A stretch of DNA of 60,943 nucleotides from an uncultured Gammaproteobacteria bacterium (GCA_963847575.1 CAWKAL010000072.1:1-60943), one strand, 5' to 3'; positions 415-47,151 are shown, numbered from the stretch's first letter. Numbers and translations: made by a program. The notes: a model not told the origin generated them from the sequence alone.

Positions 415-519
415 GCCGCAAAGTACGCAAATGACGCGAATGTAAAACAGATACTATTTACGTAATTTGTTACGGATGCTTTCATATTACTAATTTGCGT
501 CTTTCGCGTTTTTCGCGGC
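415..519. repeat. GCCGC-arm inverted repeat cassette, copy 1 (no gene)
   Basis: Left arm 415-441 gccgcaaagtacgcaaatgacgcgaat; right arm 493-519 reverse-complements to gccgcgaaaaacgcgaaagacgcaaat (21/27). Confidence 0.85.
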
Positions 520-526
520 CAGTTTT

Positions 527-1807
527 TCATGCTGCCCTGACCATGCTGCGTTTGTTTTCTACGTAGTATTCAAACTCGGGCCTGAAGTGTTTGATGAAAC
601 TGCGTACCGGCATGGCCGCGGCGTCACCCAGCGCGCAAATGGTGCGGCCTTCGATCTTGCTGGCGACATCATCGAGTTTATCGATATCGTCGTAGGTGCC
701 CTTGCCTTCCACGATGCGTGTCAGCATGCGGTAGAGCCAGCCGGTACCTTCACGACAGGGTGTGCACTGGCCGCAGGATTCAGAAAAATAAAAACGCGAG
801 ATGCGGCGTAAAGCCTGCACCATGTCGGTGGTTTCATCCATCACGATGACCGCACCGGAGCCGAGCATGGAACCGGCGGCCACCACTGAATCGTAATCCA
901 TGTTGGCCTGCATCATGATCTCGGCGGGTACCACGGGCACGGAAGACCCGCCCGGAATCACGGCTTTAAGTTTTTTGCCACCGCGCACACCGCCGGCCAT
1001 TTCGAGCAGCTCGGCAAAGGGCGTACCCATCGGGATTTCAAAGTTACCGGGCTTGTTCACATGCCCGGAGACTGAAAACAGTTTGACACCGCCGCTGTTG
1101 GGCACACCGAAGTCTGCAAACCATTTCGCGCCATTGCGCATGATGGCCGGTACTGACGACAGGGTTTCGGTGTTATTTACCGTGGTGGGTTTGCCGTAGA
1201 GGCCGAAGTTGGCCGGGAACGGCGGCTTGAATCGCGGCAGGCCGCGCTCGCCTTCGAGCGAGTTGAGCAAGGCAGTTTCTTCGCCGCAAATATAGGCACC
1301 GGCGCCGAGTGACGGATAGATATCAATCGTGACATCGCTGCCGAGAATATTTTTACCCAGCAAGCCATTGTCGTAGGCTTCTTTCAATGCCTGTTCGAAA
1401 TGCTGCGCCGGCTCATCCATAAATTCGCCGCGCATGTAGTTGTAACCCACGGTCGCGCCCATGGAATAGCACGCAATCGCCATGCCTTCGACCAGCGCAT
1501 GCGGATTGAAGCGCAGAATATCGCGGTCTTTACAGGTGCCGGGTTCAGATTCATCCGAATTGCACACCAGGTATTTTTGTACCGGCGCATTACGCGGCAT
1601 GAAACTCCATTTAAGGCCGGCGGGAAAACCCGCACCACCACGACCGCGCAGGCCTGATGCCTTGACCTCCTCAATCACAGTCTCGGGGGTAATCTTTTCC
1701 TGCAAAATTTTGCGCCACGCCTGGTAACCACCGGTCTTGAGATAATTCTCGTAAGACCACGGCGTGTCTTCAAACTGCAAGGTCGCGAAACAAACTTCGT
1801 TAGCCAT
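527..1807 (-). CDS. nuoF: NADH-quinone oxidoreductase subunit F
   Basis: [44 protein letters not shown] motifs; start trimmed to MANEV. Confidence 0.97.
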
Positions 1808-1863
1808 CAGTCTGCAATCTCCATGCATTGAACACACATAAATCACGAATTAAAAAAATCTTT

Positions 1864-2000
1864 GCCGCAAATGAACGCAAATGAACGCAAATATCTTTAT
1901 CAGTACGGCAAACTACATGATGATCAGTAACATGCTTTAAAGCCCGAGCATAACTACCAGCAAATTTTTTACATTCGCGTTCATTTGCGTTCATTGGCGG
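1864..2000. repeat. GCCGC-arm inverted repeat cassette, copy 2 (no gene)
   Basis: Left 1864-1892 gccgcaaatgaacgcaaatgaacgcaaat; right 1973-2000 rc ccgccaatgaacgcaaatgaacgcgaat (26/28). Confidence 0.9.
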
Positions 2001-2008
2001 ACTCATCT

Positions 2009-2515
2009 TCATTCCAGTGCGTCCAGGATCTCGTCGACTTTTTCAGGCGTGAGATTCTCGTAGTATTTGTGATTGACCTGCATCATCGGGCCGCCGGCGC
2101 AGGCGGCGAGGCATTCTTCTTCCTTTTTCAGGTAGATCCTGCCGTCGGGCGTACTTTCACCGATCTTGATGCCGAATTTTTTCTCGACATGATCGACAAT
2201 AGTTTCAGACCCCATCAGCATGCACGAAATATTGGTGCATACCGCGACATTATGCCGAGCAACAGGTTTCAGTTCGTACATCGAATAAAAACTGGCGACT
2301 TCGTAGACTTCGATTTTCGCCAGCTCAAGAATCGCTGCCACTTCATCCATCAATGCAGTGGTGAGATAACCACCGTTCTCGTGCTGCGCCACATTGAGCG
2401 CACCCAGTAAGGCGGATTTTTTCCTGTCTTCCGGATAGCGCGCGAGCAAAACGTCGATCTCGTCGCATGCGTGTTTTGATAATTGATTTTCTTGGGCTTC
2501 GTTCATCGGATTCAC
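2009..2515 (-). CDS. nuoE: NADH-quinone oxidoreductase subunit E
   Basis: VASFYSMY, CTNISC...ECLAAC 2Fe-2S motif; operon position. Confidence 0.95.
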   Translation of the reverse strand: MNPMNEAQENQLSKHACDEIDVLLARYPEDRKKSALLGALNVAQHENGGYLTTALMDEVAAILELAKIEVYEVASFYSMYELKPVARHNVAVCTNISCMLMGSETIVDHVEKKFGIKIGESTPDGRIYLKKEEECLAACAGGPMMQVNHKYYENLTPEKVDEILDALE

Positions 2516-3769
2516 TTACCTGTCGACTTCGCCGAACACGATGTCCTGGGTACCAATAATCGCCACCACGTCGGCCAGCATGTGGCCTTTTGACATTTCA
2601 TCCATCGCTGACAAATGCGCAAATCCCGGCGCGCGGATTTTCAGTCGATAGGGTTTGTTGGCACCGTCAGAAATAATGTAGGTACCGAACTCTCCCTTGG
2701 GGTGTTCGATAGCGGCATAGGCTTCGCCCGCGGGCAAACAGAAACCTTCGGTGAACAGTTTAAAATGATGGATCAGCGATTCCATGTCGGCTTTCATGGT
2801 TTCACGATCGGGCGGGGTAATCTTATGGTCTTCAAGAATGACCGGGCCCGGGTTTTCGCGCAGCCAGTCGATGCATTGTTTAATAATGCGATTCGACTGG
2901 CGCATTTCTTCCATGCGGCACAGATAGCGGTCATAACAGTCGCCGTTGGTGCCGACAGGAATATCAAAATCCATCCGATCATACACTTCATAGGGCTGCT
3001 TCTTGCGCAAATCCCATTCCACGCCTGAACCGCGCAACATCGGCCCGGTGAATCCCAGCTCCATGGCACGTTCCGGTGTGACGATACCGATATCGACCGT
3101 ACGCTGTTTCCAGATGCGGTTATCGGTCAGCAGGGTTTCGTATTCATCGACATAGGCCGGGAAGCGTACAGTGAAATCTTCAAGGAAATCGAGCAGCGAG
3201 CCCTGGCGGTTTTCATTGAGTTTGCGCACTTCGCGTTCGTTATGCCATTTCGACGCCTTGTAATGCGGCATGCTGTCGGGCAGATCGCGCGCGACACCAC
3301 CGGGGCGGTAATAGGTTGCATGCAATCGTGCACCGGAAACCGCTTCGTAGCAGTCCATTAAATCTTCGCGTTCGCGGAAAGCATAGAGGAACATGGTCAT
3401 GGCGCCGACATCGAGTGCGTGCGCGCCTATCCACAACAGGTGGTTAAGAATTCGCGTGACTTCATCGAACATCACACGAATGTACTGCGCGCGCTCCGGG
3501 CATTCGACACCAAGCAGTTTTTCGATGGCCAGCACATAACCGTGCTCATTACACATCATCGATACATAATCGAGCCGGTCCATGTAACCGATGCTCTGGT
3601 TATAGGGTTTGCTTTCGGCAAGTTTTTCAGTCGCGCGGTGCAACAGGCCGATATGCGGGTCGGCACGTTGAATCACTTCACCGTCCATTTCCAGCACCAG
3701 GCGCAATACCCCGTGTGCAGCCGGATGTTGCGGGCCAAAGTTGAGCGTGTAATTACGAATTTCAGGCAT
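2516..3769 (-). CDS. nuoD: NADH-quinone oxidoreductase subunit D
   Basis: [17 protein letters not shown]-terminal GEVDR; start trimmed to MPEIRNY. Confidence 0.97.
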
Positions 3770-4493
3770 TGCTGTTTTCCTGCTCGCTCTGACCGGGTTC
3801 TGCGGCCTGCGCTTTGTCATCGCGAATCACCCGCGGCACCAGCACGCGTGGTTCGATCGTCACCGGCTGGTAGATCACGCGTTTCTGTTCCGGGTCATAG
3901 CGCATTTCGACGTGACCAATCAGCGGGAAGTCCTTGCGGAAAGGATGACCGACAAAACCATAGTCGGTGAGAATACGGCGCAGATCCGGGTGGCCTTCGA
4001 AAAGAATACCGAACAGGTCGAAAGCTTCGCGCTCGTACCAGTTGGCAGATGCCCACAATGAAATCACCGAGGGCACCACCGGCACGGCATCGTTCTCGCA
4101 ATAACAACGCACGCGCAGGCGCTGGTTGTTACGGATGGACAACAAATGGTAAACCGCGGCGTAACGCTGACGATCATTGTTTTTATAAGACGGTACATCA
4201 CCAAAGCGCATGCGCGCGTTTACGCCCGGGGTAACGCCACGACTGAAACCTGTACTGGTTGACGATGTCGTAGTCCACTCCGCACTACCGTACTCGGAAT
4301 AATCCACACCGCAGACGTCAATCAATTGTTCGAAACCAAATGCAGTGTCGTCGCGCAGCTGCTGGCACACGGCTATCAGCTCGGTGGCTGACACTTCAAT
4401 CGTGACTTCACCTGCCGCAACCACGTTCGATACCAGGCGAGCACCAAATGCGCGCTGGAGGGCTTCAGAGAGTTGCTGAACTTTGCTCGACAT
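3762..4493 (-). CDS. nuoC: NADH-quinone oxidoreductase subunit C (unfused from NuoD)
   Basis: [37 protein letters not shown]. Confidence 0.96.
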
Positions 4494-4505
4494 AATGATT
4501 CCTTT

Positions 4506-4982
4506 CTAACGAGCGATGGTATTGGTGCGGCGGATTTTGTTCTGCAACTGGATAATTCCGTAGAGCAGCGCTTCCGCTGTCGGCGGGCAACCGGGGACGT
4601 ATATATCGACCGGCACGATACGGTCACAACCGCGCACCACCGAATAGGAATAATGATAATAGCCGCCGCCGTTGGCGCATGAGCCCATGGAAATCACCCA
4701 GCGCGGTTCCGCCATCTGGTCATAGACCTTGCGCAGTGCAGGCGCCATCTTGTTGCACAGGGTGCCGGCAACAATCATCACGTCGGACTGGCGCGGTGAC
4801 GGCCGGAAAATAATACCGAAACGGTCGAGGTCATAACGCGAAGCACCTGCCTGCATCATTTCCACCGCACAACAGGCAAGACCAAAGGTCATCGGCCACA
4901 GCGAACCGGTGCGCGCCCAGTTGATCAGCTTGTCGGCTGAAGTGGTAACAAAGCCTTTTTCGAGTACGCCTTCTATTCCCAT
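4506..4982 (-). CDS. nuoB: NADH-quinone oxidoreductase subunit B
   Basis: [23 protein letters not shown]; start trimmed to MGIEG. Confidence 0.97.
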
Positions 4983-5332
4983 TCCAGCGCTCCTTTTTTC
5001 CACTCGTATATAAAGCCGATCACCAGGATGCCGAGGAACACGGCCATGGCAAGAATACCGAACATGCCGATCTCGTCGAGCACGATGGCCCAGGGAAACA
5101 GGAAAGCAATTTCCAGATCGAATACGATGAACAGGATGGCAACGAGGTAATAACGCACATCGAATTTCATGCGCGAATCTTCAAATGCCTCGAAGCCACA
5201 TTCGAAAGGAGAATTCTTGGCGGCGTCAGGGCGATGCGGCGCCAGCAGGAAACCGCCCATAAACATGGCAATGACACCCACGCCCACGCCGATGGCGAGA
5301 AAAATCAGAATTGGCAAATAATTTTCGAGCAT
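4973..5332 (-). CDS. nuoA: NADH-quinone oxidoreductase subunit A
   Basis: [29 protein letters not shown]. Confidence 0.97.
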
Positions 5333-5458
5333 TTTAACTCCGCATAGGCCCGGTACATTGCCGGCCCTGTTCGTTATGTTGCTCCGCCCTGGAGACGTCC
5401 TCTGGACTTTTTCCCTTTTAGCGTCGACTTATCACCGACGTATTATCGTCTTGTTATA

Positions 5459-5543
5459 TGGTGCCGACGGCCGGACTCGAACCGGCACAGCTTTCGCCAC
5501 TACCCCCTCAAGATAGCGTGTCTACCAATTTCACCACGTCGGC
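5459..5543 (-). tRNA. tRNA-Leu (GAG)
   Basis: GCCGACGTGGTGAAATTGGTAGACACG...CTATC-TTGAGGG-GGTAG...GGTTCGAGTCC...CACCA; 85 nt with long variable arm; standard position after secG. Confidence 0.95.
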
Positions 5544-5563
5544 TATTGATCTAACAGTGATCG

Positions 5564-5956
5564 TTACTCTGCAGCCGGTGGTGGTATAGCACTGTCGGCT
5601 TCGGCAGGAAGCTCGGCGGGTTGAGGCACATTGTCCTCGACCGCATTAAACAGGGGTGCTTCTACTGCCGGAGTATCACTTTGTAACTGAATTTGCTCAA
5701 TGCTATCAATAACGCTGGTAGGCATATCGCGGTTAGCCGCCAGGTAAGCGAGCGCGAGGCTGTTGAGGAAAAAACCGGTGGCAAGGATTGCCGTGGTTTT
5801 GCTCAGAAAATTCGACGAGCCGCTGGCACCGAATACCGAGGTTGCACCGCCGCCAAATGTTGCGCCTTCACTCGCGCCTTTGCCTTTTTGCAGCAGTACC
5901 AGGGTAATGATACCGAACGCAAGACATACATGAAGTACCAGCAGAATTATATCCAC
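5564..5956 (-). CDS. secG: Preprotein translocase subunit SecG
   Basis: VLLQKGKGA..GATFGGGA.SVFGASGSSNFLSKTT; tpiA-secG-tRNA-Leu synteny. Confidence 0.95.
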   Translation of the reverse strand: MDIILLVLHVCLAFGIITLVLLQKGKGASEGATFGGGATSVFGASGSSNFLSKTTAILATGFFLNSLALAYLAANRDMPTSVIDSIEQIQLQSDTPAVEAPLFNAVEDNVPQPAELPAEADSAIPPPAAE

Positions 5957-5961
5957 TTAAA

Positions 5962-6711
5962 TTAACCGCCCGCTTTACAAATTGTTAAAAAATCTTCAGC
6001 CTTGAGTGAAGCGCCGCCGATCAGACCGCCATCGATGTCCGCCTGGCCGATGAGCTCAGCCGCGTTGGCGGGGTTCATGCTGCCACCGTAGAGGATGCGC
6101 AGGCCTGCCGCTATGTCCTCATCCAGTTTAGCAATCTTGTTGCGAATGAATGCGTGTACTTCCTGCGCCTGTTCGGGCGAAGCTGTCTTGCCGGTACCAA
6201 TCGCCCAGACCGGCTCGTAGGCCAGCACTGCGTTGGCCAGCGAGCCCACACCTTCGGCGTACAGTAAGGCGTCCAGCTGGCGCGCGATGACTTTCTCGGT
6301 GACGCCGGATTCGCGCTCTTCCAGGGTTTCGCCGATACAGAAAATCGGTTTCAGACCGTGCTTTAATACTGCGCTGTATTTGATCGCGGTAACAGCGTCA
6401 GTTTCACCGTACAGGCTGCGACGCTCGGAATGGCCGATAATGACATATTCGACACCAAAGTCTTTCAGCATGGGGCCGGCAACTTCACCGGTAAATGCGC
6501 CTGAATCCTGGTCGCACATGTTCTGCGCACCCAGCTTGATGCCAGAACCGGCAATGGCGTCGGCAACGCCGGGGATGAATACATAGGTGGGACAGACGAC
6601 AACTTCGGCTTTTACGCCGGCAGCACCTGCCTTGATTCCCTCAATGAGCTGTTTGACGCTTTCCCTGGATCCGTTCATCTTCCAGTTGCCAGCTACCATC
6701 ACCTGCCGCAT
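5962..6711 (-). CDS. tpiA: Triosephosphate isomerase
   Basis: AGNWKMNG, IIGHSERR, AYEPVWAIGTG, GGLIGGASL. Confidence 0.98.
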   Translation of the reverse strand: MRQVMVAGNWKMNGSRESVKQLIEGIKAGAAGVKAEVVVCPTYVFIPGVADAIAGSGIKLGAQNMCDQDSGAFTGEVAGPMLKDFGVEYVIIGHSERRSLYGETDAVTAIKYSAVLKHGLKPIFCIGETLEERESGVTEKVIARQLDALLYAEGVGSLANAVLAYEPVWAIGTGKTASPEQAQEVHAFIRNKIAKLDEDIAAGLRILYGGSMNPANAAELIGQADIDGGLIGGASLKAEDFLTICKAGG

Positions 6712-6886
6712 TACGCACTCCACCTGATTCTAAAGGGGGGCAAGGATACCTGTCGGCACTGAATAAATCAATGACGCGAATGGGTATATATGCCCGCCAC
6801 CGTCGCCAAAATTGATGTGAAGGGCCTCAGATAAACAAAGACTTAGTTTATTGGCGCGCAGCGCCGGCAGGCAAAGACGGGCAGAC

Positions 6887-8221
6887 TTACAAGGCGGCCT
6901 GAACTGAAGTGGCGATAGATTGCGTAAGTTCGTTGACCTGGGCCTCGTTTTCACCTTCCACCATCACCCGCACCAGCGGCTCGGTGCCGGAGGGGCGCAA
7001 CAGCACGCGGCCACTGCCATTGAGGACTTTTTCGGCATTTTTCACTGCCGCTTTGACCGCGCTTGAGTTCAGCGGATCGCCCTGCCCGCTGAGTTTCACA
7101 TTGATCATGCACTGCGGCAGCTTGTGCATGCTGCCAAGCGCGTCGCTGAGCGACTGCCCGGTTTCAGCCAGGTGCTCCAGCACCTGCAAGGCCGACACGA
7201 TGCCGTCACCCGTGGTGGTACGATCAAGACAGATGATATGCCCGGAGGATTCACCACCGAAGCTCCATTGTCTTTGATTGAGCGCTTCCAGCACGTAACG
7301 GTCGCCGACGGCCGCGCGTACAAACTCCAGCCCCATGCGCCGGATCGCCAGCTCCAGCCCCATGTTGCTCATCTGCGTGCCCACCACGCCGCCAGGCTGG
7401 GCACCGCTGCGCACCCGCGAACAGGTAATGATGTAGAGCAGCTCGTCGCCATCGACAATATTACCGCTGGCATCGACCATCACCACGCGATCGCCATCAC
7501 CGTCGAACGCGATACCAAGGTCGGCTTTTTCAGCCAGTACTTTTTCACGCAGCGCACGTGGTGAGGTCGAGCCGATATCGGCATTGATATTGAGGCCATC
7601 GGGCTCGTCACCGATGGTAATCACCTCGGCACCCAGCTCGATAAACACGCTGGGCGCGATGTGATAGGTCGCGCCGTTGGCGCAATCGAGCACTATTTTC
7701 ATGCCGGTGAAACGCGTGCCGATTGGAATACTCGCCTTGCAGGCTTCGATATAGCGGCCATAGGCATCGGCCACGCGCTGGGCCTTGCCGAGTTGCGCCG
7801 AATCAACGGTGGTCATGGGCGATTCGAACATGTCTTCGATGCGGTGTTCGATATCATCTGGCAGCTTGGTGCCCTGCGCCGAGAAAAACTTGAGCCCGTT
7901 ATCGTAGTAAGGATTGTGCGAGGCACTGATCACTATGCCTGCCGATGCGCGCAGCGTGCGCGTGAGATAGGCAATGCCCGGCGTCGGCATCGGCCCGAGC
8001 AGGCGCACATTGACACCGGCCGCTGACAGGCCCGCTTCCAGCGCGGATTCGAACATATACCCGGAAATGCGCGTGTCCTTGCCTATCACGACCAGGCGTT
8101 CACCCTGGCTGGCAAGTACACGGCCAACGGCCCAGCCGAGCTTGAGTACCTGGTCGGCCGTCATCATGCCTTCACCGACACGCCCACGAATACCATCGGT
8201 TCCAAAATATTTACGCGCCAT
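6887..8221 (-). CDS. glmM: Phosphoglucosamine mutase
   Basis: [36 protein letters not shown]. Confidence 0.97.
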
Positions 8222-8270
8222 TATCAATTCACTTCTGTTCTGAGGTTTCTGTTTATCGTATTCACTTTTC

Positions 8271-8301
8271 CCCGGATGCGGTAGAACTGCATCCGGGCTA
8301 C
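8271..8301 (-). repeat. GTAG-family REP-like palindrome
   Basis: Minus strand GTAG-CCCGGATGC-AGTTCTACC-GCATCCGGG: GTAG tetranucleotide followed by a 9-bp perfect stem. Confidence 0.6.
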
Positions 8302-8304
8302 ATT

Positions 8305-8346
8305 CTATTCACTATTCACTATTCACTATTCATTATTCATTGCTTT
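8305..8346 (-). repeat. 7-bp tandem array (TGAATAG)n overlapping the folP stop
   Basis: Plus strand (CTATTCA)x4 at 8305-8332 then TTATTCA; minus strand reads AAGCAATGAATAATGAATAGTGAATAG... Confidence 0.9.
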
Positions 8347-9168
8347 TCTAACTGCGTCGCACAGCTTTAATGCATCAACCGTTTCCGTGACATCGTGCAC
8401 CCGGAAAAACCGCACGCCCTTGATGCACGCGATCACTGCTGCGGTCACACTACCGATGACTCGGTCATTGACCGGCCGTTCCAGTAACTCGCCCAGCATG
8501 CTCTTGCGTGAAATACCCACCAGTACCGGAAAGTCTAGACCACAAAATGCGTCGATGTTGGCCAGCATTTGCAGATTATGTTCGAGGCTTTTGCCAAAAC
8601 CGAAACCCGGGTCGAGAATAATATGCTGTTCGGATATCCCGCGCTCGACACAGGCCTGGGCACGTTCGCGCAAAAACTTGCGCACCTCGGCCACCACGTT
8701 CTGATACTCCGGCCTGTGCTGCATGGTACGCGGCTCGCCCTGCATGTGCATCAGGCATACCGGCACATTCAGCTCGGCACAGGCTTCCACGGCACCGGGC
8801 GCACGCAGGGCATAAACATCATTGATCAAATTGGCGCCGGCGGCGACAGCGGCGCGCATCACTTCGGGCTTGCTGGTATCGATCGAAACGGGCACATCAC
8901 TGTGCTGGCGAATCGCCTCGATCACAGGTACCACCCGGTGGATTTCTTCATCTGCAGTCACCGGCTCGGCGCCGGGACGGGTGGACTCACCACCGACATC
9001 GATCATATCGGCACCCTGGAGTTCCATTTCACGCGCACGCTCGAGCGCGATTTCCACGCCGCTGAACTGTCCGCCATCCGAGAACGAATCCGGCGTGACA
9101 TTGAGCACCCCCAGAATCACCGGCCGATGCGAGCGCAACAGCTCCAGGGTTTTATCAACACTGCTCAT
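8326..9168 (-). CDS. folP: Dihydropteroate synthase
   Basis: GVLNVTPDSFSDGG, GGESTRPGA, DPGFGFGK, SRKS, RVHDV. Confidence 0.97.
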   Translation of the reverse strand: MSSVDKTLELLRSHRPVILGVLNVTPDSFSDGGQFSGVEIALERAREMELQGADMIDVGGESTRPGAEPVTADEEIHRVVPVIEAIRQHSDVPVSIDTSKPEVMRAAVAAGANLINDVYALRAPGAVEACAELNVPVCLMHMQGEPRTMQHRPEYQNVVAEVRKFLRERAQACVERGISEQHIILDPGFGFGKSLEHNLQMLANIDAFCGLDFPVLVGISRKSMLGELLERPVNDRVIGSVTAAVIACIKGVRFFRVHDVTETVDALKLCDAVRKAMNNE

Positions 9169-9203
9169 TAAATATCACTACCCATGTATCTGTAAGGTAT
9201 CAA

Positions 9204-9228
9204 TAAAAAAGGGAGCCAAGCTCCCTTT
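9204..9228 (-). terminator. Rho-independent terminator downstream of ftsH
   Basis: Minus strand AAAGGGAGC-TTG-GCTCCCTTTTTT. Confidence 0.75.
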
Positions 9229-9269
9229 AATATCTTTTCACACCCGGCAAAAACATTCGAGCCCGGCAT

Positions 9270-9312
9270 TTCATTTTTCATTATTCACTATTCATTATTA
9301 ATTGCTCAATGA
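9270..9312 (-). repeat. Degenerate 7-bp tandem array at the 3' end of ftsH
   Basis: Plus strand ttcattt ttcatta ttcacta ttcatta ttaattg; minus strand GCAATTAATAATGAATAGTGAATAATG, a few nt after the ftsH stop. Confidence 0.75.
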
Positions 9313-11250
9313 TCAGTGCTGATTTGCCGTGCCACCAATTGAGCCTTTATGTTTATCGGCTTTTTCACCGATGTCTGCACTGGCACCACCACTTGGGCCA
9401 GTCGGCGGCTCTGGCGTGTCGTGCCAGTCTCTCGGTGGCGGCGGCTCGCGGCGTTCCATCAGCGCGTCAATCATGGCCACGTCAATGGTTTCATATTTGA
9501 TCAGTGCTTCCGCCATGTTATTGAGTATATCGAGATTATCGCTCAGCATTTTGTGCGCGCGTTCGTAATTACGGTCGATGAAAGTGCGCACTTCTTCGTC
9601 GATAATGCGCGCGGTATCGTCACCCATGTTCTTGTGCTTGGTCACCGAGCGACCGAGGAACACTTCGCCTTCGTCCTCGATATAGGTCAGCGGGCCGAGA
9701 CGTTCTGACAGGCCCCACTTGGTCACCATGTTGCGCGCAATTTCGGTGGCGCGCTCGATATCATTCGAAGCGCCGGTGGTCACGCTGTCAGCACCAAAAA
9801 TCAGCTCTTCGGCAATACGCCCGCCGAACAGGCTGGAGATCATGCTTTCGAGATGTTTCTTGCTGTGGCTGTAGCGGTCGGCTTCGGGCAGGAACATGGT
9901 AATACCCAGCGCGCGGCCACGCGGAATAATGCTGACCTTGTAGACCGGATCATGTTCCGGCACCAGTCGACCGACAATCGCATGACCGGCTTCGTGGTAA
10001 GCCGTGAGTTTTTTCTCGTCTTCCGACATCACCATGGAGCGACGCTCGGTGCCCATCATGATCTTGTCCTTGGCGCGTTCGAAATGGCGCATCTCGACCT
10101 GCTTGCAGTTTTCGCGCGCGGCAAACAACGCGGCTTCGTTCACCAGGTTGGCCAGATCGGCACCGGAGAAACCGGGTGTGCCACGGGCAATAATCGCCGG
10201 ATTGACATCACGTGCTTCCGGCACCTTGCGGATATGGACTTTCAGAATCTGTTCGCGACCACGGATGTCGGGCAGCGGCACCACCACCTGGCGGTCGAAA
10301 CGACCGGGGCGCAGCAGCGCCGGATCGAGCACATCGGGACGGTTGGTGGCAGCAATGACAATCACGCCTTCGTTGCCTTCGAAACCATCCATTTCGACCA
10401 GCAACTGGTTGAGGGTCTGCTCGCGCTCGTCGTGACCACCGCCGAGACCGGCACCGCGATGACGACCGACAGCATCGATTTCGTCGATGAAGATAATACA
10501 GGGCGCGTGTTTTTTCGCCGTCTCGAACATGTCACGTACGCGCGAGGCACCGACGCCGACAAACATTTCAACAAAGTCGGAACCTGAAATAGTGAAGAAC
10601 GGCACCTTGGCTTCACCGGCGATGGCACGTGCCAGCAGGGTTTTACCGGTACCCGGCGAACCCACCATGAGCACGCCCTTGGGAATCTTGCCGCCCAGTT
10701 TCTGGAATCGGCCCGGGTCGCGCAGAAATTCGACCAGCTCGGAAACTTCTTCCTTGGCCTCGTCTGCACCGGCAACATCATTGAATGTGACCTTGATCTG
10801 GTCTTCACCCAGCATGCGCGCCTTGCTCTTGCCGAACGACATGGCGCCACGGCCACCCGCACCGCCCTGCATCTGGCGCATGAAGAATATCCAGATGCCT
10901 ATCAGCAGCAGGAACGGAAACCATGAAATAAATATGGTCATCAGCAAAGACTGGCTTTCCGGCGGCATCGCCTTGATTTCAACACCGTTGCTGAGCAGGT
11001 CACCCACCATGGCGCTATTGTTGGTTTCGGGGCTGTAGGTGCTGAACGGCGTACCGTTGGACAATCGGCCCTTGATATCACGGCCATCGATCACAACTTC
11101 GCTGACCTGTGACTGTTTCACCATATCAATGAACGCGGAATACGCGACCATCTGTGGGCTGGTGCCGGTTTTGCTGAAATTACTGAAAACTGACAGCAGT
11201 ACTACCGCTATGACAGCCCACAGGATGAGATTCTTGGCCAGATCGTTCAA
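9313..11250 (-). CDS. ftsH: ATP-dependent zinc metalloprotease FtsH
   Basis: Two TM segments, GSPGTGKT Walker [14 protein letters not shown] zinc motif. Confidence 0.98.
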
Positions 11251-11315
11251 GTTAGCGCTCCGAATGTATCCGCGAATAAATAACGAATATTAGATGTTGT
11301 TAAACTTACTATAGT

Positions 11316-11954
11316 TCACTGCCTGTTGCCAGCAAAGCCCGTGGCGACTGCATATATTTCTCGGCTGCGGTTTCGCGAAGCTTTAGGCTTGCGCATCACC
11401 ACCCTGGCAAAATTCTGCTTCAGGCTTTTATTGTAGGCCTCGAAGCCTTCACCCTGAAACAGCTTGACCAGCAGCCCTCCACCGGGTTTGAGCACCTGCC
11501 TGGCAAGTTCCAGCGCCAGTTCGGCGAGATAATACGCACGCGGCATGTCCACCACGCCCATGCCACTTATATTGGGTGCCATGTCCGAAATTACAAGGTC
11601 GGCGCGATCATCACCCATGAGTTTCATCAATTGCGTATAAACACTTTCTTCGCGGAAATCACCCTCGATGATTTCCACACCTTCGATGGGTTCCATCGGC
11701 AAAATATCCAGCGCGATAATACGGCCCTTTCCCCCCAGCTGGGTCAGCACGTATTCCGACCAGCCACCCGGCGCGGCGCCGAGATCGATCACCGTCATGC
11801 CCGGTTTGAGCAGCCGGTCCTTTTGCTGGATTTCGATCAGTTTGTAAATCGCGCGCGAACGATAACCGTCCTGCTGCGAGCGCAACACGTACTCGTCTTC
11901 GAAGTGTTCCTTGAGCCACTGCCTGCTGGATTTACTCCTGCCCTTCTTACTCAT
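11316..11954 (-). CDS. rlmE: 23S rRNA Um2552 methyltransferase RlmE
   Basis: [32 protein letters not shown]; rlmE-ftsH synteny. Confidence 0.96.
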
Positions 11955-12012
11955 GTTCCGCTCACTCGTGCTATAGTTCGCCGCCGTTCAGCTTTACACC
12001 GTGGGTGTTCAG

Positions 12013-12309
12013 ATGTCACTTACAAAAAACCAGATTAAACATTTACGCGGATTGTGTCACGCCCTGCACCCGATCGTCATGCTCGGTCAAAAAGGCCTGA
12101 GCCAGGAAGTACTGGATGAACTGGAAATTGCACTCAATCACCACGAACTGGTAAAAATTAAAGTCGCCGTGGATGACCGCGACATGCGTCGGCAAGTCAT
12201 CGAATCGCTGTGTGATACCAGCCAGTCAGAAATCGTGCAGTCAATCGGCAAAACCGTTTGCGTGTTTCGCCGCAACACCAAAAATCCCGTGGTTGAATTG
12301 CCAAAGTAA
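12013..12309 (+). CDS. yhbY: Ribosome assembly RNA-binding protein YhbY (CRM domain)
   Basis: HLRGLCHALHPIVMLGQKGL, HELVKIK, VQSIGK; divergent from rlmE. Confidence 0.93.
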   Translation: MSLTKNQIKHLRGLCHALHPIVMLGQKGLSQEVLDELEIALNHHELVKIKVAVDDRDMRRQVIESLCDTSQSEIVQSIGKTVCVFRRNTKNPVVELPK

Positions 12310-12318
12310 ATAATAAAT

Positions 12319-12527
12319 AGCCGCGAATGAACGCGAATGAACGCAAATTAAATAATTTATCTAACGAATCTTCAGATCTGAAGACGCTGAGGTTAACCAT
12401 AATTGCTGCTCCCATACGAACAGAAAAATGAAAACTGCGTCGTATCCAGCATTTCTAACCAGACAGCAGCATCTGGTTTCACATATATAATTTTTTAATT
12501 CGCGTTCATTCGCGTTCATTTGCGGCT
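12319..12527. repeat. GCCGC-arm inverted repeat cassette, copy 3 (no gene)
   Basis: Left 12319-12352 agccgcgaatgaacgcgaatgaacgcaaattaaa; right 12494-12527 matches 32/34 as reverse complement. Confidence 0.92.
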
Positions 12528-12534
12528 GAATTTT

Positions 12535-13011
12535 TTATATGTATTTCACTTCGACGATTTCGAATGAACGCACACCGCCCGGAGTTTGCACATCTACCAC
12601 ATCACCTTCCACTTTGCCGATGAATGCGCGCGCTATCGGTGAGCTGTAGGAAATCTTGTTGGCCTTGATATCGGCCTCGTCTTCACCGACGATTTGGTAG
12701 GTCAGTTCATCGCCGGTTTCTTCGTCGGCCACATCCACGGTAGCGCCGAACACCACCTTGCCGTCAGCCGCCAGGCTGGTGACATCGATAATGGTGGCGT
12801 TGCCGAGTTTGCCTTCGATGTCCTTGATACGGCCTTCGATAAAACCCTGCTGTTCACGCGCGGCGTGATACTCGGCGTTTTCTTTTAAATCACCGTGTGC
12901 ACGTGCTTCTGCAATTGCTTCGATCACGCGCGGACGATCCACGGATTTCAGCTGCTGCAGTTCCTGCTGAAGTTTTTCTGCACCCTGTACAGTAATAGGC
13001 ACCTTGCTCAT
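12535..13011 (-). CDS. greA: Transcription elongation factor GreA
   Basis: [26 protein letters not shown]; follows carB. Confidence 0.97.
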
Positions 13012-16000
13012 GCTGCGACCTCTTTCTTGATTGCCGCGTGCAGGTCCTGCAAACGGGTAACCGCGTTCTGTTCCAGATAATCCAGCGCATTGCAGGTTGC
13101 ACGCGCGCCGGCAATCGTGGTGGTGTAGCTTACCTTATGCTGCAGTGCCGATGCGCGAATCGTGTATGAATCGGCGATGGCCTTTTTGCCTTCAGTGGTA
13201 TTGATAATCAGTTTAATTTCTTCGTTCTTGATCATGTCAACAATATGCGGCCGGCCTTCATATACCTTGTTGACCAGCGCGCATTCGATGCCCGCTTCTT
13301 TCAACGCCCTGCCGGTACCCCGCGTGGCTATCAGCTTGAAGCCATGTTCAGCCAGGCTGCGGCCGAGTTCAACAGCATACTTGCGATCACGTTCACGCAC
13401 ACTGATAAAAACATTGCCCGCGGTCGGCAACACCACGCCGGCACCGAGTTGCGCTTTTGCAAACGCCATGCCGAAGGAACTGCCCACGCCCATGACTTCG
13501 CCGGTGGATTTCATTTCCGGCCCCAGCAGGGGATCGACTCCGGGGAATTTCACAAACGGGAACACCGATTCTTTCACTGCGTAAGTCGACGGAATCACTT
13601 CGCGGGTGACACCCTGCGATGCGAGACTGCGCCCGGCCATACAACGTGCAGCAATTTTTGCCAGCGGTAGCCCGGTGGCTTTTGACACGAACGGCACCGT
13701 GCGCGATGCGCGCGGATTCACTTCGAGCAAATAAATATTGTCGCCCTGTATCGCAAACTGGATATTCATCAAACCCACGACGCCGAGTTTGAGTGCGAGC
13801 TGGCGGGTTTGTTCACGCAACTCGTCCTGAATTTTTTTAGACAGCGAATACGGCGGCAATGAACATGCCGAATCACCGGAATGCACACCGGCCTGCTCGA
13901 TATGTTCCATGATGCTGCCGATGAGCACGTCTTTGCCATCACAGATCGCATCGACATCGACTTCAACGGCATCATCCAGGAAACGATCGAGCAATACCGG
14001 GGCGTCGTTCGACACACTGACCGCGGTGCGCATGTAATGTTTCAGATCGGTTTCATCGTAGACAATTTCCATGGCGCGGCCACCGAGCACATACGACGGG
14101 CGCACCACCAGCGGGTAACCGATTTCGGCCGCGCGCGAGACCGCTTCGTCAGCCGAACGTGCGAGCCGGTTTGGTGGCTGTTTCAAACCGAGTTCTTCGA
14201 CCAGTTGCTGGAAACGCTCGCGGTCTTCGGCCAGGTCGATACAGTCGGGCGTGGTACCAATAATGGGTGCGCCGGCGGCTTCGAGTGCGCGCGCAAGCTT
14301 CAACGGGGTCTGGCCACCGTACTGCACGATGACGCCTTTGGGTTTTTCCACTTCGAGCACTTCGAGCACGTCTTCGAGCGTGAGCGGTTCGAAATACAGC
14401 CGGTCGGAAGTATCGTAATCGGTCGACACGGTTTCGGGATTGCAGTTGATCATGATGGTTTCATAACCATCTTCACGCATCGCCAGCACTGCATGCACGC
14501 AGCAATAGTCAAATTCGATGCCCTGGCCGATACGGTTCGGCCCGCCACCGAGCACGACAATTTTGTCACGCGTAGACGGCAGCGCTTCGCATTCTTCCTC
14601 GTAGGTCGAATACATGTAGGCGGTCGAGGTGGAAAATTCTGCGGCGCAGGTATCGACGCGCTTGAATACCGGCGTGACCCCGAGCTGGTGGCGGCGCTGG
14701 TACACCGCGTTCATTTTTGTGCCGAGTAATAGTGCCAGCCTGCTGTCGGAAAAACCCTTGCGCTTGAGTATTCTGAGTTCGTCGGCGTCCACCTGTTCCA
14801 GCGTTTTGCCGACCAGGCCCTGCTCAAGCGTGATCAGTTCTTCGATCTGGACCAGGAACCACGGATCGATTTTACTCAGTTCGAACATGCGCTCGCGGCT
14901 ATAACCGCGGCGGAAAGCATCGCCGACATAACGCAGGCGGTCTGCGCCGGCGAGACTGATTTCCTGGTTGAGTCTGGCTTCGGCCTCGTCATCCGATAAA
15001 CCTTCTTCCAGCACCGGCGTCAGGCCGTCGATATCGACTTCGAGTCCGCGCAGGGCTTTTTGCAATGATTCCTGGAAGGTACGGCCAATCGCCATGACTT
15101 CACCGACAGATTTCATCTGCGTAGTCAGACGGTTTTCAGCCTGCGGGAATTTTTCAAAGGTGAAGCGCGGGATCTTGGTGACGACGTAATCTATCGTCGG
15201 TTCGAACGATGCCGGGGTGGCGCCACCGGTAATATCATTTTGCAATTCATCCAGGGTGAAGCCCACCGCCAGCTTGGCGGCGACCTTGGCGATCGGGAAA
15301 CCGGTCGCTTTCGACGCCAGCGCGGATGAACGCGACACCCGCGGGTTCATTTCGATAATGGTCATGCGGCCATCATCGGGGCAGACCGAGAACTGTACGT
15401 TGGAACCGCCGGTGTCGACACCGATTTTGCGCAGCACTGCAATCGAGGCATCGCGCATGCGCTGGTATTCCTTGTCGGTGAGGGTTTGCGCCGGCGCCAC
15501 GGTAATCGAATCACCGGTGTGAATGCCCATCGGGTCAAGGTTTTCGATCGAGCAGATAATGATGCAGTTGTCCTTGTTATCGCGCACCACTTCCATTTCG
15601 TATTCTTTCCAGCCGAGCACGGACTCTTCCACCAGCAGTTCATTCACCGGCGACATATCCAGGCCGCGGCGGCAGATTTCTTCGAACTCGTCACGGTTGT
15701 AGGCGATGCCGCCACCGCTGCCGCCCATGGTGAACGATGGCCGGATGATAGTGGGATAACCGACCATGGCCTGCACCTGGTAGGCTTCTTCCATGCTGTG
15801 CGCGATGGCTGCGCGCGGCATGTCGAGGCCGATGTCTTCCATCGCGATCTTGAATTTTTCGCGGTCCTCGGCCATGTCGATGGCTTCCTTTCTGGCGCCG
15901 ATCATTTCGACGCCGAATTTTTCCAGCACACCTTCACGATCGAGATCAAGCGCACAGTTGAGCGCAGTCTGTCCACCCATGGTGGGCAGCAGGGCGTCAG

Positions 16001-16247
16001 GTTTTTCCAGCTCGATTATTTTTGCCACGGTCTGCCAGGTAATCGGCTCGATATAGGTAGCGTCGGCCATCTCCGGGTCGGTCATGATGGTCGCCGGGTT
16101 CGAGTTGACCAGGATAACGCGGAAGCCTTCCTCGCGCAGCGCCTTGCAGGCCTGTGCACCAGAATAATCAAACTCGCAGGCCTGGCCGATCACAATCGGG
16201 CCGGCGCCGATGATCAGGATGCTGTGTATGTCGGTTCTTTTAGGCAT
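13008..16247 (-). CDS. carB: Carbamoyl-phosphate synthase large subunit
   Basis: [17 protein letters not shown], two ATP-grasp halves, 1079 aa. Confidence 0.99.
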
Positions 16248-16296
16248 ATTCTAGGTATCACTTGCGCACTATTGCACGTCCAGATAAAGAACCTTT

Positions 16297-16772
16297 GCCG
16301 CAAAATACGCAAAGGACGCAAAATTAAATGTTATCTTTTTCACTGTATTCCCAGACTATTCGTTTTATACCCAATGGTGCCATTCCAAAATTTAGTAACA
16401 GCGCCACGCTTAGACCACTTGCACGAAGATAATTAATTACTTGCGCTTTATGGTTGGCGTTAAATGATGGAACTGCCTTTAATTCAACTATTAATTTATC
16501 CTCGATAACAATATCCGCTTGATATTGACCAATGAGTTTTCGCTTATAGAAAACATCAAGCGGCTGTTGTCTGGAAAAAGAAATACCATTTTGTTCCAGT
16601 TCGTATGCAAGTGCATTTTCGTACACGGCCTCAAGAAATCCAGGGCCAAGTTCACGACTCACATTTTGAGCACACCCAATAACCATTTCAGATATCCTTT
16701 TTCTGATTCGCATCCTTCATCCCTATTAACAATTACTTCGCTTTTTTTTGCGTCCTTTGCGATATTCGCGGC
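16297..16772 (-). mobile_element. Putative element: GxxExxY gene bounded by GCCGC-arm inverted repeats (copy 4, gene-containing)
   Basis: Left arm 16297-16323 gccgcaaaatacgcaaaggacgcaaaa; right arm 16746-16772 rc gccgcgaatatcgcaaaggacgcaaaa (23/27); mobility is inferred. Confidence 0.65.
16324..16713 (-). CDS. GxxExxY family protein (PD-(D/E)xK nuclease-like fold)
   Basis: 129 aa; LGPGFLEAVY (GxxExxY), ADIVIEDKLIVELKA (D...ExK), QVINYL, LLLNFG; AT-richer than flanking car genes. Confidence 0.92.
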   Translation of the reverse strand: MRIRKRISEMVIGCAQNVSRELGPGFLEAVYENALAYELEQNGISFSRQQPLDVFYKRKLIGQYQADIVIEDKLIVELKAVPSFNANHKAQVINYLRASGLSVALLLNFGMAPLGIKRIVWEYSEKDNI

Positions 16773-39883: not shown

Positions 39884-39889
39884 ATCTGC

Positions 39890-40678: not shown

Positions 40679-40835
40679 TCAAACACCTCGACATAATTCG
40701 CTCTATGACTCATCAATTTATAGACGCGCGTGAAGCTCACAAGCAACCCTGCTGAACAATGGCTGTCATCAGCTAGTCCTTTGTACACTCCAAGGTCAAA
40801 AGTAAACGGGGTTTTGCGTATCGCATCAATGTGTT

Positions 40836-44211: not shown

Positions 44212-44221
44212 GAGATGGAAT

Positions 44222-44297
<76 letters not shown>

Positions 44298-44363
44298 TGA
44301 AACATATGGATTCATGCGTGGGTATGAATGGGGTCGTGAATCTAAGGGATGCATCATGCTATG

Positions 44364-45773
44364 TCAAGCAGCTTCCTGCGCGGCGATGTAGTTAATGGCA
44401 TGTTTCAGCCGTGACAGTGTTTTGCTTTTGCCCAGCGCTTCCAGCGTGATATCGATCGACGGCGATGAACCGCTGCCGGTGGCGGCGACGCGCAACGGCA
44501 TGCCCACCTTGCCCATGCCAACGCCGAGACTTGCAGCGGTCTGTTCCACCACCTGGTGGATCGCCGCCGCCTTCCAGTCGTCCAGCGCTTCGAACGCTGT
44601 CAACAATTCATCCAGCACTTTCGCTGCCGCTGCTTTCAGATGTTTTTTCGCCGCGTTAGAGTCATAGCTTTCAAAATCACGATATAAATACAGGCTTTCG
44701 TCCACCAGCGCATGCAGCGTGCTGCTGCGCTCGCGCATGAGCTCGGCAACCACTTCGACTGCCGGGCCGTCATTCACATTGATACCGCGTGCATTCAGGC
44801 CAGAGCGCAGAGCATCCGCAAGCTGGTCTGCAGGCAAATCCATAATGTATTGCTGGTTGAGCCAGATAAGCTTGTCCGGATTAAATGTCGACGCCGCTGA
44901 ATTGACATTGCCGATGTCGAAAAATTCGATCATCTCGGCGCGGCTGAACAGTTCCTGGTCGCCATGCGACCAGCCGAGGCGCACCAGGTAATTCATCAGC
45001 GCCTCGGGCAAATAACCTTCGTCGCGGTATTGCAGCACACTGACCGCGCCGTGGCGTTTCGATAACCGCTTGCCATCGGCACCCAGGATCATCGGCACAT
45101 GCGCGTACACCGGCAGGTTTGCGCCGAGTGCGTTCAGGATATTGATCTGGCGCGGGGTGTTATTGAGGTGATCATCACCGCGGATCACGTGGCTGATGTT
45201 CATGTCCCAGTCGTCTACCACCACGGTGAAATTATACGTCGGGGTGCCGTCGGGGCGCGCGATCACCAGGTCATCCAGCTCGCGGTTATTGATCACCACC
45301 CGGCCCTTGACCTTGTCGTCGATGATCACATCGCCGTCCAGCGGATTTTTAAAACGCACCACGGTACGATCATTTGGCGCCAGTCCGCGTTCGCGACAGC
45401 AGCCGTCATAGCGCGGTTTCTGCTTGTCCGCCATCTGTTGCTCGCGCAGTTTATCCAGCCGCTCGCGCGAGCAATCACAGTGATAGGCGTGCCCGGTCTC
45501 GATCAGTTGCTCGATGACTTCGCGGTAACGCTCGAAACGCTGCGTCTGGTAGAACGGGCCTTCATCGTAATCCAGCCCCAGCCAGTCCATGCCCTGCAAA
45601 ATGACATCGACCGAGGCCTGGGTGGAGCGTTCGCGGTCGGTATCTTCAATCCGCAATACAAATGTGCCACCGAGCTTGCGCGCGTATAACCAGGCGAACA
45701 GCGCGGTGCGGGCGCCTCCAATATGAAGGTAACCGGTCGGGCTGGGGGCAAAGCGGGTGCGTACAGTTGTCAT
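44364..45773 (-). CDS. gltX: Glutamate--tRNA ligase
   Basis: RFAPSPTGYLHIGG, LRIEDTD, KRLSKR. Confidence 0.97.
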   Translation of the reverse strand: MTTVRTRFAPSPTGYLHIGGARTALFAWLYARKLGGTFVLRIEDTDRERSTQASVDVILQGMDWLGLDYDEGPFYQTQRFERYREVIEQLIETGHAYHCDCSRERLDKLREQQMADKQKPRYDGCCRERGLAPNDRTVVRFKNPLDGDVIIDDKVKGRVVINNRELDDLVIARPDGTPTYNFTVVVDDWDMNISHVIRGDDHLNNTPRQINILNALGANLPVYAHVPMILGADGKRLSKRHGAVSVLQYRDEGYLPEALMNYLVRLGWSHGDQELFSRAEMIEFFDIGNVNSAASTFNPDKLIWLNQQYIMDLPADQLADALRSGLNARGINVNDGPAVEVVAELMRERSSTLHALVDESLYLYRDFESYDSNAAKKHLKAAAAKVLDELLTAFEALDDWKAAAIHQVVEQTAASLGVGMGKVGMPLRVAATGSGSSPSIDITLEALGKSKTLSRLKHAINYIAAQEAA

Positions 45774-45881
45774 GCCAGGGTCCAAAAAAAGTGCGCCTAT
45801 TCTAACGGCTCAGCCGCCACGGTGACAGCCTGATGATGCCTGTCCTGCCCCTTGATTGCCCGAGACCGTTACAATAGGCCA

Positions 45882-47006
45882 ATGTCCGCCACCGAAACAC
45901 CCGCAGAATCCAGCCTGGATTATTCCGACCTCGCCCGCCAGATCCGGCACTGGGCGCGCGAACTCGGGTTTCAGCAGGCCGAAATCAGCGGTACCGACCT
46001 GGCTGCTGACGAAGCCCATTTGCTCAACTGGCTCGATCAGGGCCGTCATGGCGAAATGGACTATATGCAACGCCACGGCAGCAAACGCAGCCGTCCTGCT
46101 GAACTGGTCCCGGGCACGCTGCGGGTGATCTCGGTACGCATGGATTATTTCCCGCCCGACGCCGAGCTCGCCGAAAGCGTACTGGCTAATCCACAGCTGG
46201 GCTATATTTCGCGCTACGCGCTGGGCCGCGACTACCACAGGCTGATGCGCAAACGCCTGCAGAAACTGGCGGATAAAATCCAGGCCAACAGCGGCGAATT
46301 CGGCTACCGCGTGTTCGTCGACAGCGCCCCGGTGCTGGAAAAAGCCCTGGCGCAAAGCGCCGGGCTCGGCTGGATCGGCAAGCACACCAACCTGATCAAT
46401 CGAAACGCCGGCTCGTGGTTTTTTCTCGGCGAGCTCTACACTGACCTGCCGTTACCGCTATCCTCGGCCGCCACCGAAGCCGCCACCGAAACCGATATCG
46501 ATGTCGAGCACGACAACAGTAACCACTGCGGCAGCTGCAGCGCGTGTATCGATATCTGCCCGACCCGGGCCATCGTCGCGCCCTACCAGCTCGACGCCCG
46601 GCGCTGTATTTCCTATCTCACGATTGAATACCAGGGCGTGATCGCGCCCGAGTTTCACGCCGGCATCGGCAACCGTATCTACGGCTGCGACGACTGCCAG
46701 CTGTGCTGCCCGTGGAACCGGTTCGCAAGTCCCACAGTCGAGCCGGATTTTTTCAGCCGGCACCCGCTGGACGCGCCGGATTTACTCGAACTGTTTGGCT
46801 GGACAGAAGACGAATTCCTGCGCCGCACCGAAGGCTCGGCGATGCGCCGCATCGGTTATGAACAATGGCAACGCAATCTCGCAGTCGCACTCGGCAATGC
46901 GCCGTATTCAGAACAGATTATCGAACGCCTGAAAACCGCCCTGCCCGACGCATCAGCGGTGGTGACCACACAGATAGGGATGGCACTGGCAAAACTAAAA
47001 AGCTAA
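45882..47006 (+). CDS. queG: Epoxyqueuosine reductase
   Basis: ISRYALGRDYH, VDSAPVLEK, CGSCSACIDICPT, GCDDCQLCCPWN. Confidence 0.95.
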   Translation: MSATETPAESSLDYSDLARQIRHWARELGFQQAEISGTDLAADEAHLLNWLDQGRHGEMDYMQRHGSKRSRPAELVPGTLRVISVRMDYFPPDAELAESVLANPQLGYISRYALGRDYHRLMRKRLQKLADKIQANSGEFGYRVFVDSAPVLEKALAQSAGLGWIGKHTNLINRNAGSWFFLGELYTDLPLPLSSAATEAATETDIDVEHDNSNHCGSCSACIDICPTRAIVAPYQLDARRCISYLTIEYQGVIAPEFHAGIGNRIYGCDDCQLCCPWNRFASPTVEPDFFSRHPLDAPDLLELFGWTEDEFLRRTEGSAMRRIGYEQWQRNLAVALGNAPYSEQIIERLKTALPDASAVVTTQIGMALAKLKS

Positions 47007-47011
47007 TTATT

Positions 47012-47151
47012 GCCGCGAATTACGCAAAGAACGCAATTTAAAGTCAGATTTTTTCCTGACAAGTAAGCTACCAGCTAACTATGCGGCGTATTTTTCATTT
47101 CCGTAATCAGAACTACAATTCTTAATTTGCGTTCTTTGCGTAATTCGCGGC
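47012..47151. repeat. GCCGC-arm inverted repeat cassette, copy 5 (no gene)
   Basis: Left 47012-47041 gccgcgaattacgcaaagaacgcaatttaa; right 47122-47151 rc gccgcgaattacgcaaagaacgcaaattaa (29/30). Confidence 0.92.

Follow-up and report, generated by a model that had tools for sequence, protein, structure and literature searches.

Inverted tandem-unit arms around a PD-(D/E)XK nuclease gene and its gene-less relatives: agreement between the arms of a copy is probably inherited in the main

A 60,943-nucleotide stretch of DNA from an uncultured gammaproteobacterium (GCA_963847575.1, CAWKAL010000072.1:1-60943; the whole of it is called the window here) holds five short elements that end in inverted arms made of CGC(A/G)AA units with short linkers between them. 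An initial annotation observed that the linkers differ among copies while they largely match between the two arms of one copy. This raises the question of whether pairing of the arms is maintained copy by copy or whether the arms agree for another reason. All five belong to a family of selfish, hairpin-ended DNA elements that is very abundant. In the full form, of about 0.5 kb, a single GxxExxY (PD-(D/E)XK) gene is enclosed by two inverted arrays, each with 2-5 short units in tandem, and most copies are gene-less miniatures that, judging from their shared arms, appear to derive from such cassettes. The arm agreement probably reflects, for the most part, a lineage identity that is inherited along with the nuclease gene, topped up by occasional arm-to-arm copying of DNA. 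The arm variants, which we call dialects (unit word, linker and period), would be inherited with the element, and the arms of a copy match because both descend from one parent with already matched arms. Each dialect would then mark a separate lineage of cassettes, diverging together with its nuclease gene. Now and then the arms within an element would be homogenised at the DNA level, the likely route being a template switch during replication or recombination of one inverted arm with the other, with the interior being flipped as well.

The genome to which the window belongs (G000; 2.70 Mb in 138 contigs, 81% complete) contains 77 paired elements with arms of CGC(A/G)AA units. A loose pattern had given 78 pairs, from which two false pairs inside genes were removed and to which copy 2 of the window was added by hand. 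Seventy-six of the elements are 64-257 bp long and carry no nuclease gene, the remaining one being copy 4 of the window (Table 1). The three-unit pattern is found in 63 + 63 occurrences in G000. Among 24 further genomes of this family 18 contain it, as does one of 16 genomes from other families of the class, and its reversed form is absent from all 41 genomes searched. Three classes can be distinguished: about 35 copies have TGAA-type linkers and a 10-nt period, about 26 have 3-nt linkers and a 9-nt period, and about 16 have a 2-nt and then a 3-nt linker behind an ACC terminus, with a period of 8-9 nt. A sister family is built on 7-nt units. As periods from 7 to 10 nt coexist, a fixed helical phase is not conserved, and the suggestion that the spacing puts the units on one face of the helix does not hold. 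The interiors are mostly unrelated among copies, short hairpin cores excepted. According to crude gene-strand calls based on the longest open frames, the neighbouring genes are convergent for 38 of the elements, co-directional for 35 and divergent for two, and two are at contig edges. The elements fill a large share of the intergenic spacers in G000 and in most of its family and lie inside core operons (nuo, carAB).

The open reading frame (ORF) of copy 4 matches Pfam PF13366 (E = 1.2e-40) and TIGR04256 (E = 1.3e-41). Asp67, Glu77 and Lys79 are invariant across 37 GxxExxY homologues. The AlphaFold model has a pLDDT of 90.9, and Foldseek retrieves generic PD-(D/E)XK folds only (lambda exonuclease, Cas4, Hjc and restriction-like enzymes) with TM scores of about 0.5; a sequence search of solved structures found no relative. 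With its acidic residue, its E-x-K motif and the predicted core fold, the product is assigned by sequence and model to the PD-(D/E)XK nuclease superfamily. PDDEXK_3 is given as a family of unknown function in the portion of PMC3424549 available to us, and it is a very common one, with at least 7990 matches among 8000 candidates scored. A description of cassettes with a nuclease gene between tandem-unit arms was not found in the literature searched (titles and abstract openings).

The gene and the arms belong together. GxxExxY genes are present in 19 of the 31 genomes of the family that were searched. They make up 30 loci, of which two are cut by contig ends and 28 are scorable. In 26 of these 28 the gene lies between inverted arrays of the words CGCAAAT, CGCAAAG, CGCAGAG, CACAGAG and CACAGAT; one of the other two shows a long inverted repeat that has the same terminus but is not periodic, and one has a 10-nt match only. 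On a tree of 28 nucleases, which leaves out one frameshifted gene, two genes cut by contig ends and one without a locus, the arm word changes eight times compared with 14.7 times for shuffled labels, and none of 200 shuffles is as low. The labels were assigned by eye and are shared by kin, so that this result stands for linkage of gene and arms and not necessarily for recognition. Two well supported nuclease clades carry different sets of arm words. The arm words of the gene-less copies 1-3 and 5 (10-nt and 9-nt CGCRAA) also flank nuclease genes, namely in G004, G011, G021, G045, G001 and G003. The nuclease, or another trans-acting factor, probably needs two matching ends or an extruded DNA hairpin.

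In the window copies each arm reads CCGC(A/G)AA followed by two further CGC(A/G)AA units. A repeat search finds complementary arms of 43 nt (91%) in copy 5, 39 nt (92%) in copy 3, 28 nt (93%) in copy 2, where the right terminus is degenerate (GGCGG), and 27 nt (85%) in copy 4, while only 20 of 27 positions are paired in copy 1. The reported match of linkers between arms is correct for copies 2 and 3 (TGAA/TGAA in both arms), for copy 5 (TTA/GAA) and for the inner linker of copy 4 (GGA on both arms). The outer linker of copy 4 (ATA versus TAT) and the linkers of copy 1 (GTA/TGA versus AAA/AGA), which the initial annotation does not mention, are discordant. Many of the remaining mismatches were said to be A/G transitions. 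This is literally true in the window (eight of 17), yet there is no excess: the other nine are transversions, and the arm comparison over all 77 elements gives 1795 matches, 131 transitions, 143 transversions and 20 gap columns.

Across the 77 elements of G000 a 28-nt left arm scores 20.4 against its own right arm and 14.6 against the right arms of other copies (z = 11; none of 10000 permutations reaches the observed value). Co-variation of the arms within each copy, as originally proposed, is therefore borne out. The further statement that these arms are unlike the ends of insertion sequences (IS), which are shared across copies, finds no support in the same comparison. The own partner is the best or tied best match in 11 of 77 elements only and has a median rank of 10, which means that arm types are common to many copies, as IS ends are. 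The excess seen in G000 is barely present in its sister genome G003, where the flanks are about 90-95% identical and 37 elements were recovered: the within-copy score is 18.24 versus 17.02 between copies (z = 2.5; 72 of 10000 permutations reach it). A single lineage, whose inner linkers disagree between the two arms (GGA versus TAA), prevails in G003 and recurs at more than ten sites.

Covariation was counted on an alignment fitted to a covariance model, which was built from 64 elements of at most 217 nt; the refit was made because the first MAFFT alignment (A1) set the 3-nt linkers asymmetrically. The fitted alignment (A2) contains both strands of each element and, having been fitted to structure, leans towards structure. 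On it 87.4% of cells are paired versus 83.0 ± 0.3% in shuffles, and 275 cells are changed on both sides versus 151.6; neither value is reached in any of 500 shuffles. The covariation score is 0.175 compared with 0.108 in shuffles, and sliding the partners by 1-3 columns leaves 30-45% of cells paired, so that the signal lies above both controls. It is marked at the base that adjoins CCGC (G-C 76, A-T 23, T-A 13) and at the A/G position in units 1 and 2 and is absent at the innermost unit 3. Within the three classes the mutual information between corresponding left-arm and right-arm positions (L_i-R_i) is 0.224, 0.341 and 0.268 versus permuted values of 0.149, 0.269 and 0.179 (reached by 4, 24 and 0 of 500 permutations, respectively), and it exceeds the off-diagonal and the same-arm values. 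Subfamily structure alone was considered as a full account and is too simple, as this within-class coupling and the events at the locus described next remain.

Changes in place are seen at C74:37355 of G000. Compared with the G003 orthologue the outer flanks are collinear, while the inner approximately 250 nt aligns as the reverse complement only. When this flip is allowed for, a T-A pair in linker 1 has become A-T and the G-C pair next to CCGC has become T-A, each with both arms altered; the inner arms also contain one unilateral transition. Both double changes are transversions, and a rough estimate gives about 0.1 mirrored changes expected by chance. The inversion and the double substitutions are as expected from arm-to-arm template switching. 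In the available parts of PMC8604942 and PMC8794818, template switching between imperfect inverted repeats is described as homogenising the arms and inverting the spacer, and as able to maintain stems without selection; the homogenising process here may well be of this kind. A second case is the paralogous pair C138:8318 and C138:22143, which have a 39-nt interior stretch in common (92% identity). In one arm the two copies differ in a linker, AAA versus TTA, and the TTA matches the partner arm of its own copy. The idea that selection or gene conversion keeps the stem thus survives in part: some homogenisation in place exists at C74:37355 and in the C138 pair, but the signal is mainly at the level of lineages and the arm type follows the nuclease phylogeny.

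The elements are mobile. The carA|carB spacer, compared in 17 genomes, contains a cassette of about 0.5 kb in five (G000, G003, G004, G010 and G011) and is short in ten (25-108 nt including 20 flanking bases); one further genome has another insert of 303 nt and one is unscorable. G019 has three near-identical cassettes with 491 nt in common and unrelated flanks, one of them bracketed by an 8-nt direct repeat. Direct repeats of at least 9 nt are found at the ends of three of the 97 outermost elements of G000 (0.5 expected), the other 94 being not beyond chance. The spacer of copy 3 is occupied in G004 and G002 by elements with CACAGAG-word arms and interiors that are unrelated by eye, and the site of copy 5 has different arms and a non-aligning interior in G003. 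For 22 elements of G003 both flanks lie on one G000 contig; 17 of them face a CGCRAA element there, and five face an element with other words or a degenerate one. At the 17 shared sites, some of which may hold replaced elements, within-copy similarity is higher than orthologous-arm similarity in nine cases, tied in one and lower in seven. Four sediment-metagenome runs were compared with positions 1-17500 of the window. The assembled contigs end at the element borders, those that join through the arms carry other interiors and hence represent other copies, and no contig bridging an empty site was found in these runs. A clean pair of empty and filled sites was not recovered among the genomes either.

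Elements also occur inside one another. In 21 cases a CGCRAA-word element lies symmetrically inside arms of C(A/G)C(A/G)GA words, 37-67 nt from each outer end (for example C3:7463-7669, C26:1788-2020, C45:45112-45269 and C76:24921-25179 in G000); the reverse order, with CGCRAA outside, has no case in G000. The outer-tier words are CACAGAG, CGCAGAG and CACAGATGAA, and the base ahead of the first unit (ACC, GCC or TCC) is nearly always identical in both tiers. Nesting may reflect a single composite element, or else directional insertion at the midpoint of elements that were already in place. The carA|carB cassette of G003 (L059) lies inside decayed remnants of outer arms, GCCGCGAAGG... on one side and ...TTTGCGGACTAA on the other, which suggests that an older cassette once occupied this site and received a newer one in its interior. 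In the G019 lineage (L168, L178 and L183) the palindrome extends about 45 nt past the CACAGAG arms, with termini GGGTCTATG.../...CATAGACCC, and the tandem-unit arms are consequently not always the true element ends.

The positions of the window elements and of related features are collected in Table 1. The five paired elements and the solo arm all lie in spacers between minus-strand genes.

Table 1. Paired elements, single arm and nuclease gene in the window (positions counted from its first nucleotide)
Feature	Position	Strand	Size and type	Location	Arms
Copy 1	416-518		103 bp, gene-less	nuoG-nuoF spacer	416-442 and 492-518
Copy 2	1865-2000		136 bp, gene-less	nuoF-nuoE spacer	10-nt period, TGAA linkers
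Copy 3	12321-12525		205 bp, gene-less	adjoins greA	10-nt period
Copy 4	16298-16771		474 bp, full cassette	carB-carA spacer	9-nt period
Copy 5	47013-47150		138 bp, gene-less	queG-pgi spacer	9-nt period, TTA/GAA in both arms
Nuclease gene, GxxExxY / PDDEXK_3	16324-16713	-	129 amino acids	inside copy 4	
Foldback element of another dialect	52013-52142				AATGAAT/AATTAAT heptamers; 23 nt, 96% complementary (repeat search)
Solo two-unit CGCRAA arm	58697-58719	+			partner not found

Several observations concern individual sites. The carA stop codon TAG (window 16772-16774) abuts the arm terminus as TAG|CCGC or TAG|TCCGC in three members of the genus (G000, G003 and G004). Genome-wide the distance from stop codon to element is 0-1 nt in three of 112 cases, with one further overlap of 28 nt and a median of about 55 nt. 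In one metagenome contig (run X1; depth 3.7 of 15) the left arm of copy 3 is shorter by exactly one of its 10-nt units, at 12322, which hints at slippage in unit number or at another copy mapping there. A further foldback family, with arrays of AATGAAT/AATTAAT heptamers as arms, occurs at about 20 places in the genome. Besides the window element listed in Table 1 these include window 58790-58862 and, elsewhere in G000, C9:27721-27809, C24:14456-14548, C74:20794-20891 and others. An array of TTCACTA/TTCATTA heptamers lies 75 nt away from the solo CGCRAA arm.

How far can the arm agreement be explained otherwise? Selection might act on RNA: the elements would be co-transcribed with their operons and would require a long double-stranded stem, for instance to be excised by RNase III in the manner of rRNA intervening sequences (IVS), and compensatory changes would be kept on the transcript. 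Copies 1, 2 and 4 indeed lie within the nuoEFG and carAB gene rows, and RNA folding predicts strong hairpins (z against shuffles of -4.2 for copy 1, -5.4 for copy 2, -7.9 for copy 3 and -8.4 for copy 5). According to the accessible part of PMC4990558, an ORF-bearing IVS of the Coxiella 23S rRNA is excised by RNase III. A search for RNA runs that contain window positions 1-2600 gave no match. Several observations speak against selection on RNA. The initial annotation took A/G transitions as G-U wobble pairs on one strand, but among the transition mismatches on the presumed transcript of the co-directional subset, for which strand calls are crude, 29 are G·U and 31 A·C; transitions do not dominate over transversions; the elements in convergent spacers, about half of all, have no defined single transcript strand; the two compensatory changes in place, as transversions, have no wobble intermediate; and the G003 lineage with two inner-linker mismatches spreads freely. 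We therefore consider this explanation improbable, and RNA pairing is likely not to be the selected property. Still less credible, and given hardly any weight by us, is an origin as REP/REPIN elements that owe their movement to a RAYT tyrosine transposase. There are three Y1_Tnp matches in G000, and nine of the CGCRAA elements contain, in one orientation or the other, a GTAG-type REP hairpin (GGCGGGCAATGCCCGCC). At C3:18300-18626, however, the RAYT-like gene has inverted GTAG hairpins on its two sides and not CGCRAA arms, the other two Y1_Tnp matches have no arms, and of 92 hits of the hairpin pattern, which permitted one mismatch and so includes some that are not true repeat copies, 83 lie outside the elements; the CGCRAA arms are tandem-unit arrays without GTAG. 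G000 possesses a canonical REP-RAYT region at C3:17704-18860, made up of this Y1_Tnp gene and its flanking hairpins with a tandem cluster of GTAG hairpins beside it. The elements with a GTAG hairpin in the interior include class-B elements, for instance at C3:7510-7622 and C89:14260-14373.

More serious is a purely lineage-based account with a cognate protein, in which neither pairing nor homogenisation plays a part. The ends would match since the same trans-acting protein binds both, as with the terminal repeats of an ordinary IS, and the dialects would be separate families with their own proteins. Dialects do cluster on the nuclease tree, identical or near-identical arms recur across copies and genera, the within-versus-between signal of G003 is weak and the covariation measure that is robust to relatedness is not above shuffles. 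Such a protein does not explain why the linkers between the conserved CGCRAA units agree as well, with position-specific coupling greater than same-arm coupling within classes, nor why mirrored double substitutions and an inversion are found at one orthologous locus. In G000 a single intact GxxExxY gene stands against at least five dialects, and the origin of each new symmetric dialect still requires a like change in both arms. We rate the account as fairly unlikely in this pure form. At the other extreme, the arms might be regenerated and not just inherited, the elements being self-homing foldback elements with a structure-specific GxxExxY nuclease. The nuclease would cut the extruded hairpin or cruciform and repair would copy one arm from the other; arms would then stay matched whatever their sequence, dialects would drift fast, interiors would flip and new cassettes would be aimed at the centre of resident ones. 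Cassettes directed at centres would give the strict two-tier nesting, with CRCRGA words outside and CGCRAA words inside in 21 cases to 0. To this possibility we assign a low probability, similar to that of the cognate-protein account.

A number of results weigh against the explanation that we prefer, inherited lineage identity with occasional copying between arms. The covariation measure that is least sensitive to relatedness, pairs with a change on both sides, gives 14 versus 13.7 and is reached by 276 of 500 shuffles, and the alignment from which it comes, A2, is the structure-fitted one with both strands of each element. The single intact nuclease gene of G000, a genome that is 81% complete, counts here as well. 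An hmmsearch of the six-frame translated genome with a local GxxExxY profile, filters off, detected no nuclease remnants in the gene-less copies, the copy 4 gene and one weak unrelated match being all that it returned; it is the shared arms alone that argue for a derivation of these copies from cassettes. The nuclease belongs to a family whose function PMC3424549 lists as unknown. The evidence for homogenisation consists of one locus with two double changes and one paralogous pair, and the shared-site copies at C81, C87 and C3 show unilateral arm changes or gain and loss of units (the interiors at C87 and C3 being alignable). Finally, elements are replaced. In the carA|carB spacer the nucleases of the two genomes, G000 and G003, share only 61% identity next to a carB gene with 94% DNA identity, and each has closer relatives elsewhere, from which it follows that the cassette at this site was replaced. 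At nine of 14 scorable sites shared by the two genomes the interiors cannot be aligned although the flanks are about 90-95% identical; at the other five they align above the 95th percentile of non-orthologous pairs. Most of the seemingly concerted arm differences between species may hence be due to element replacement and not to evolution in place.

The present analysis adds the within-versus-between test, the co-clustering of dialects and nucleases, the inversion and the nesting order. If a nuclease combined with a foldback structure is a distinct kind of mobile DNA, a very common family of unknown function would acquire a role, and the breaks of metagenome assemblies at these sites would be explained. 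A caution for covariation analysis also follows: lineage structure and template switching of DNA can mimic a strong compensatory signal without any selected RNA structure.

Among known systems, the bacterial miniature inverted-repeat transposable elements (MITEs) such as Correia/NEMIS, ERIC, RUP and Nezha come to mind. Like these, the elements described here are small, non-coding and intergenic, with terminal inverted repeats and many copies, and they are placed downstream of genes, as the near absence of divergent spacers illustrates. Direct repeats of 8-10 nt beside a few copies, with most other ends not above chance, may be target-site duplications. The elements differ from MITEs in that each arm consists of 7-10 nt units in tandem, with words and periods that vary, that the interiors are mostly unrelated and that elements are nested in a fixed order. 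An interior shared with a transposase-encoding parent IS, as in MITEs, was not seen; the gene found with the same ends, in a survey that did not extend to other transposases, encodes a PD-(D/E)XK nuclease and not a DDE transposase. The Coxiella 23S rRNA IVS, as presented in the part of PMC4990558 at hand, is likewise a selfish insert of about 0.4-0.5 kb with a small ORF between inverted ends that form a long stem. The elements here lie in spacers of protein genes, however, and their ORF is PDDEXK_3 and not S23p; the window contains no rRNA (Rfam at the gathering threshold gives three tRNAs only), and the wobble bias that would be the signature of selection on RNA was not found in the co-directional subset. 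With the REP/REPIN-RAYT system they have in common abundant intergenic palindromic repeats and a single-copy associated gene flanked by repeats, but the REP-RAYT pair of G000 itself is separate and uses another repeat, and the arms here go with a gene for a PD-(D/E)XK nuclease. Template-switch mutation at quasipalindromes (PMC8604942 and PMC8794818; see also PMC7202029) is a known process that produces both arm homogenisation and spacer inversion, as seen between C74:37355 and its G003 orthologue. It is a process and not an element family, and here it would act on a mobile element, with few events documented. The elements can be described as GxxExxY foldback cassettes: in copy 4 the gene lies between inverted tandem-unit arrays, and the gene-less copies share the arms of gene-bearing ones.

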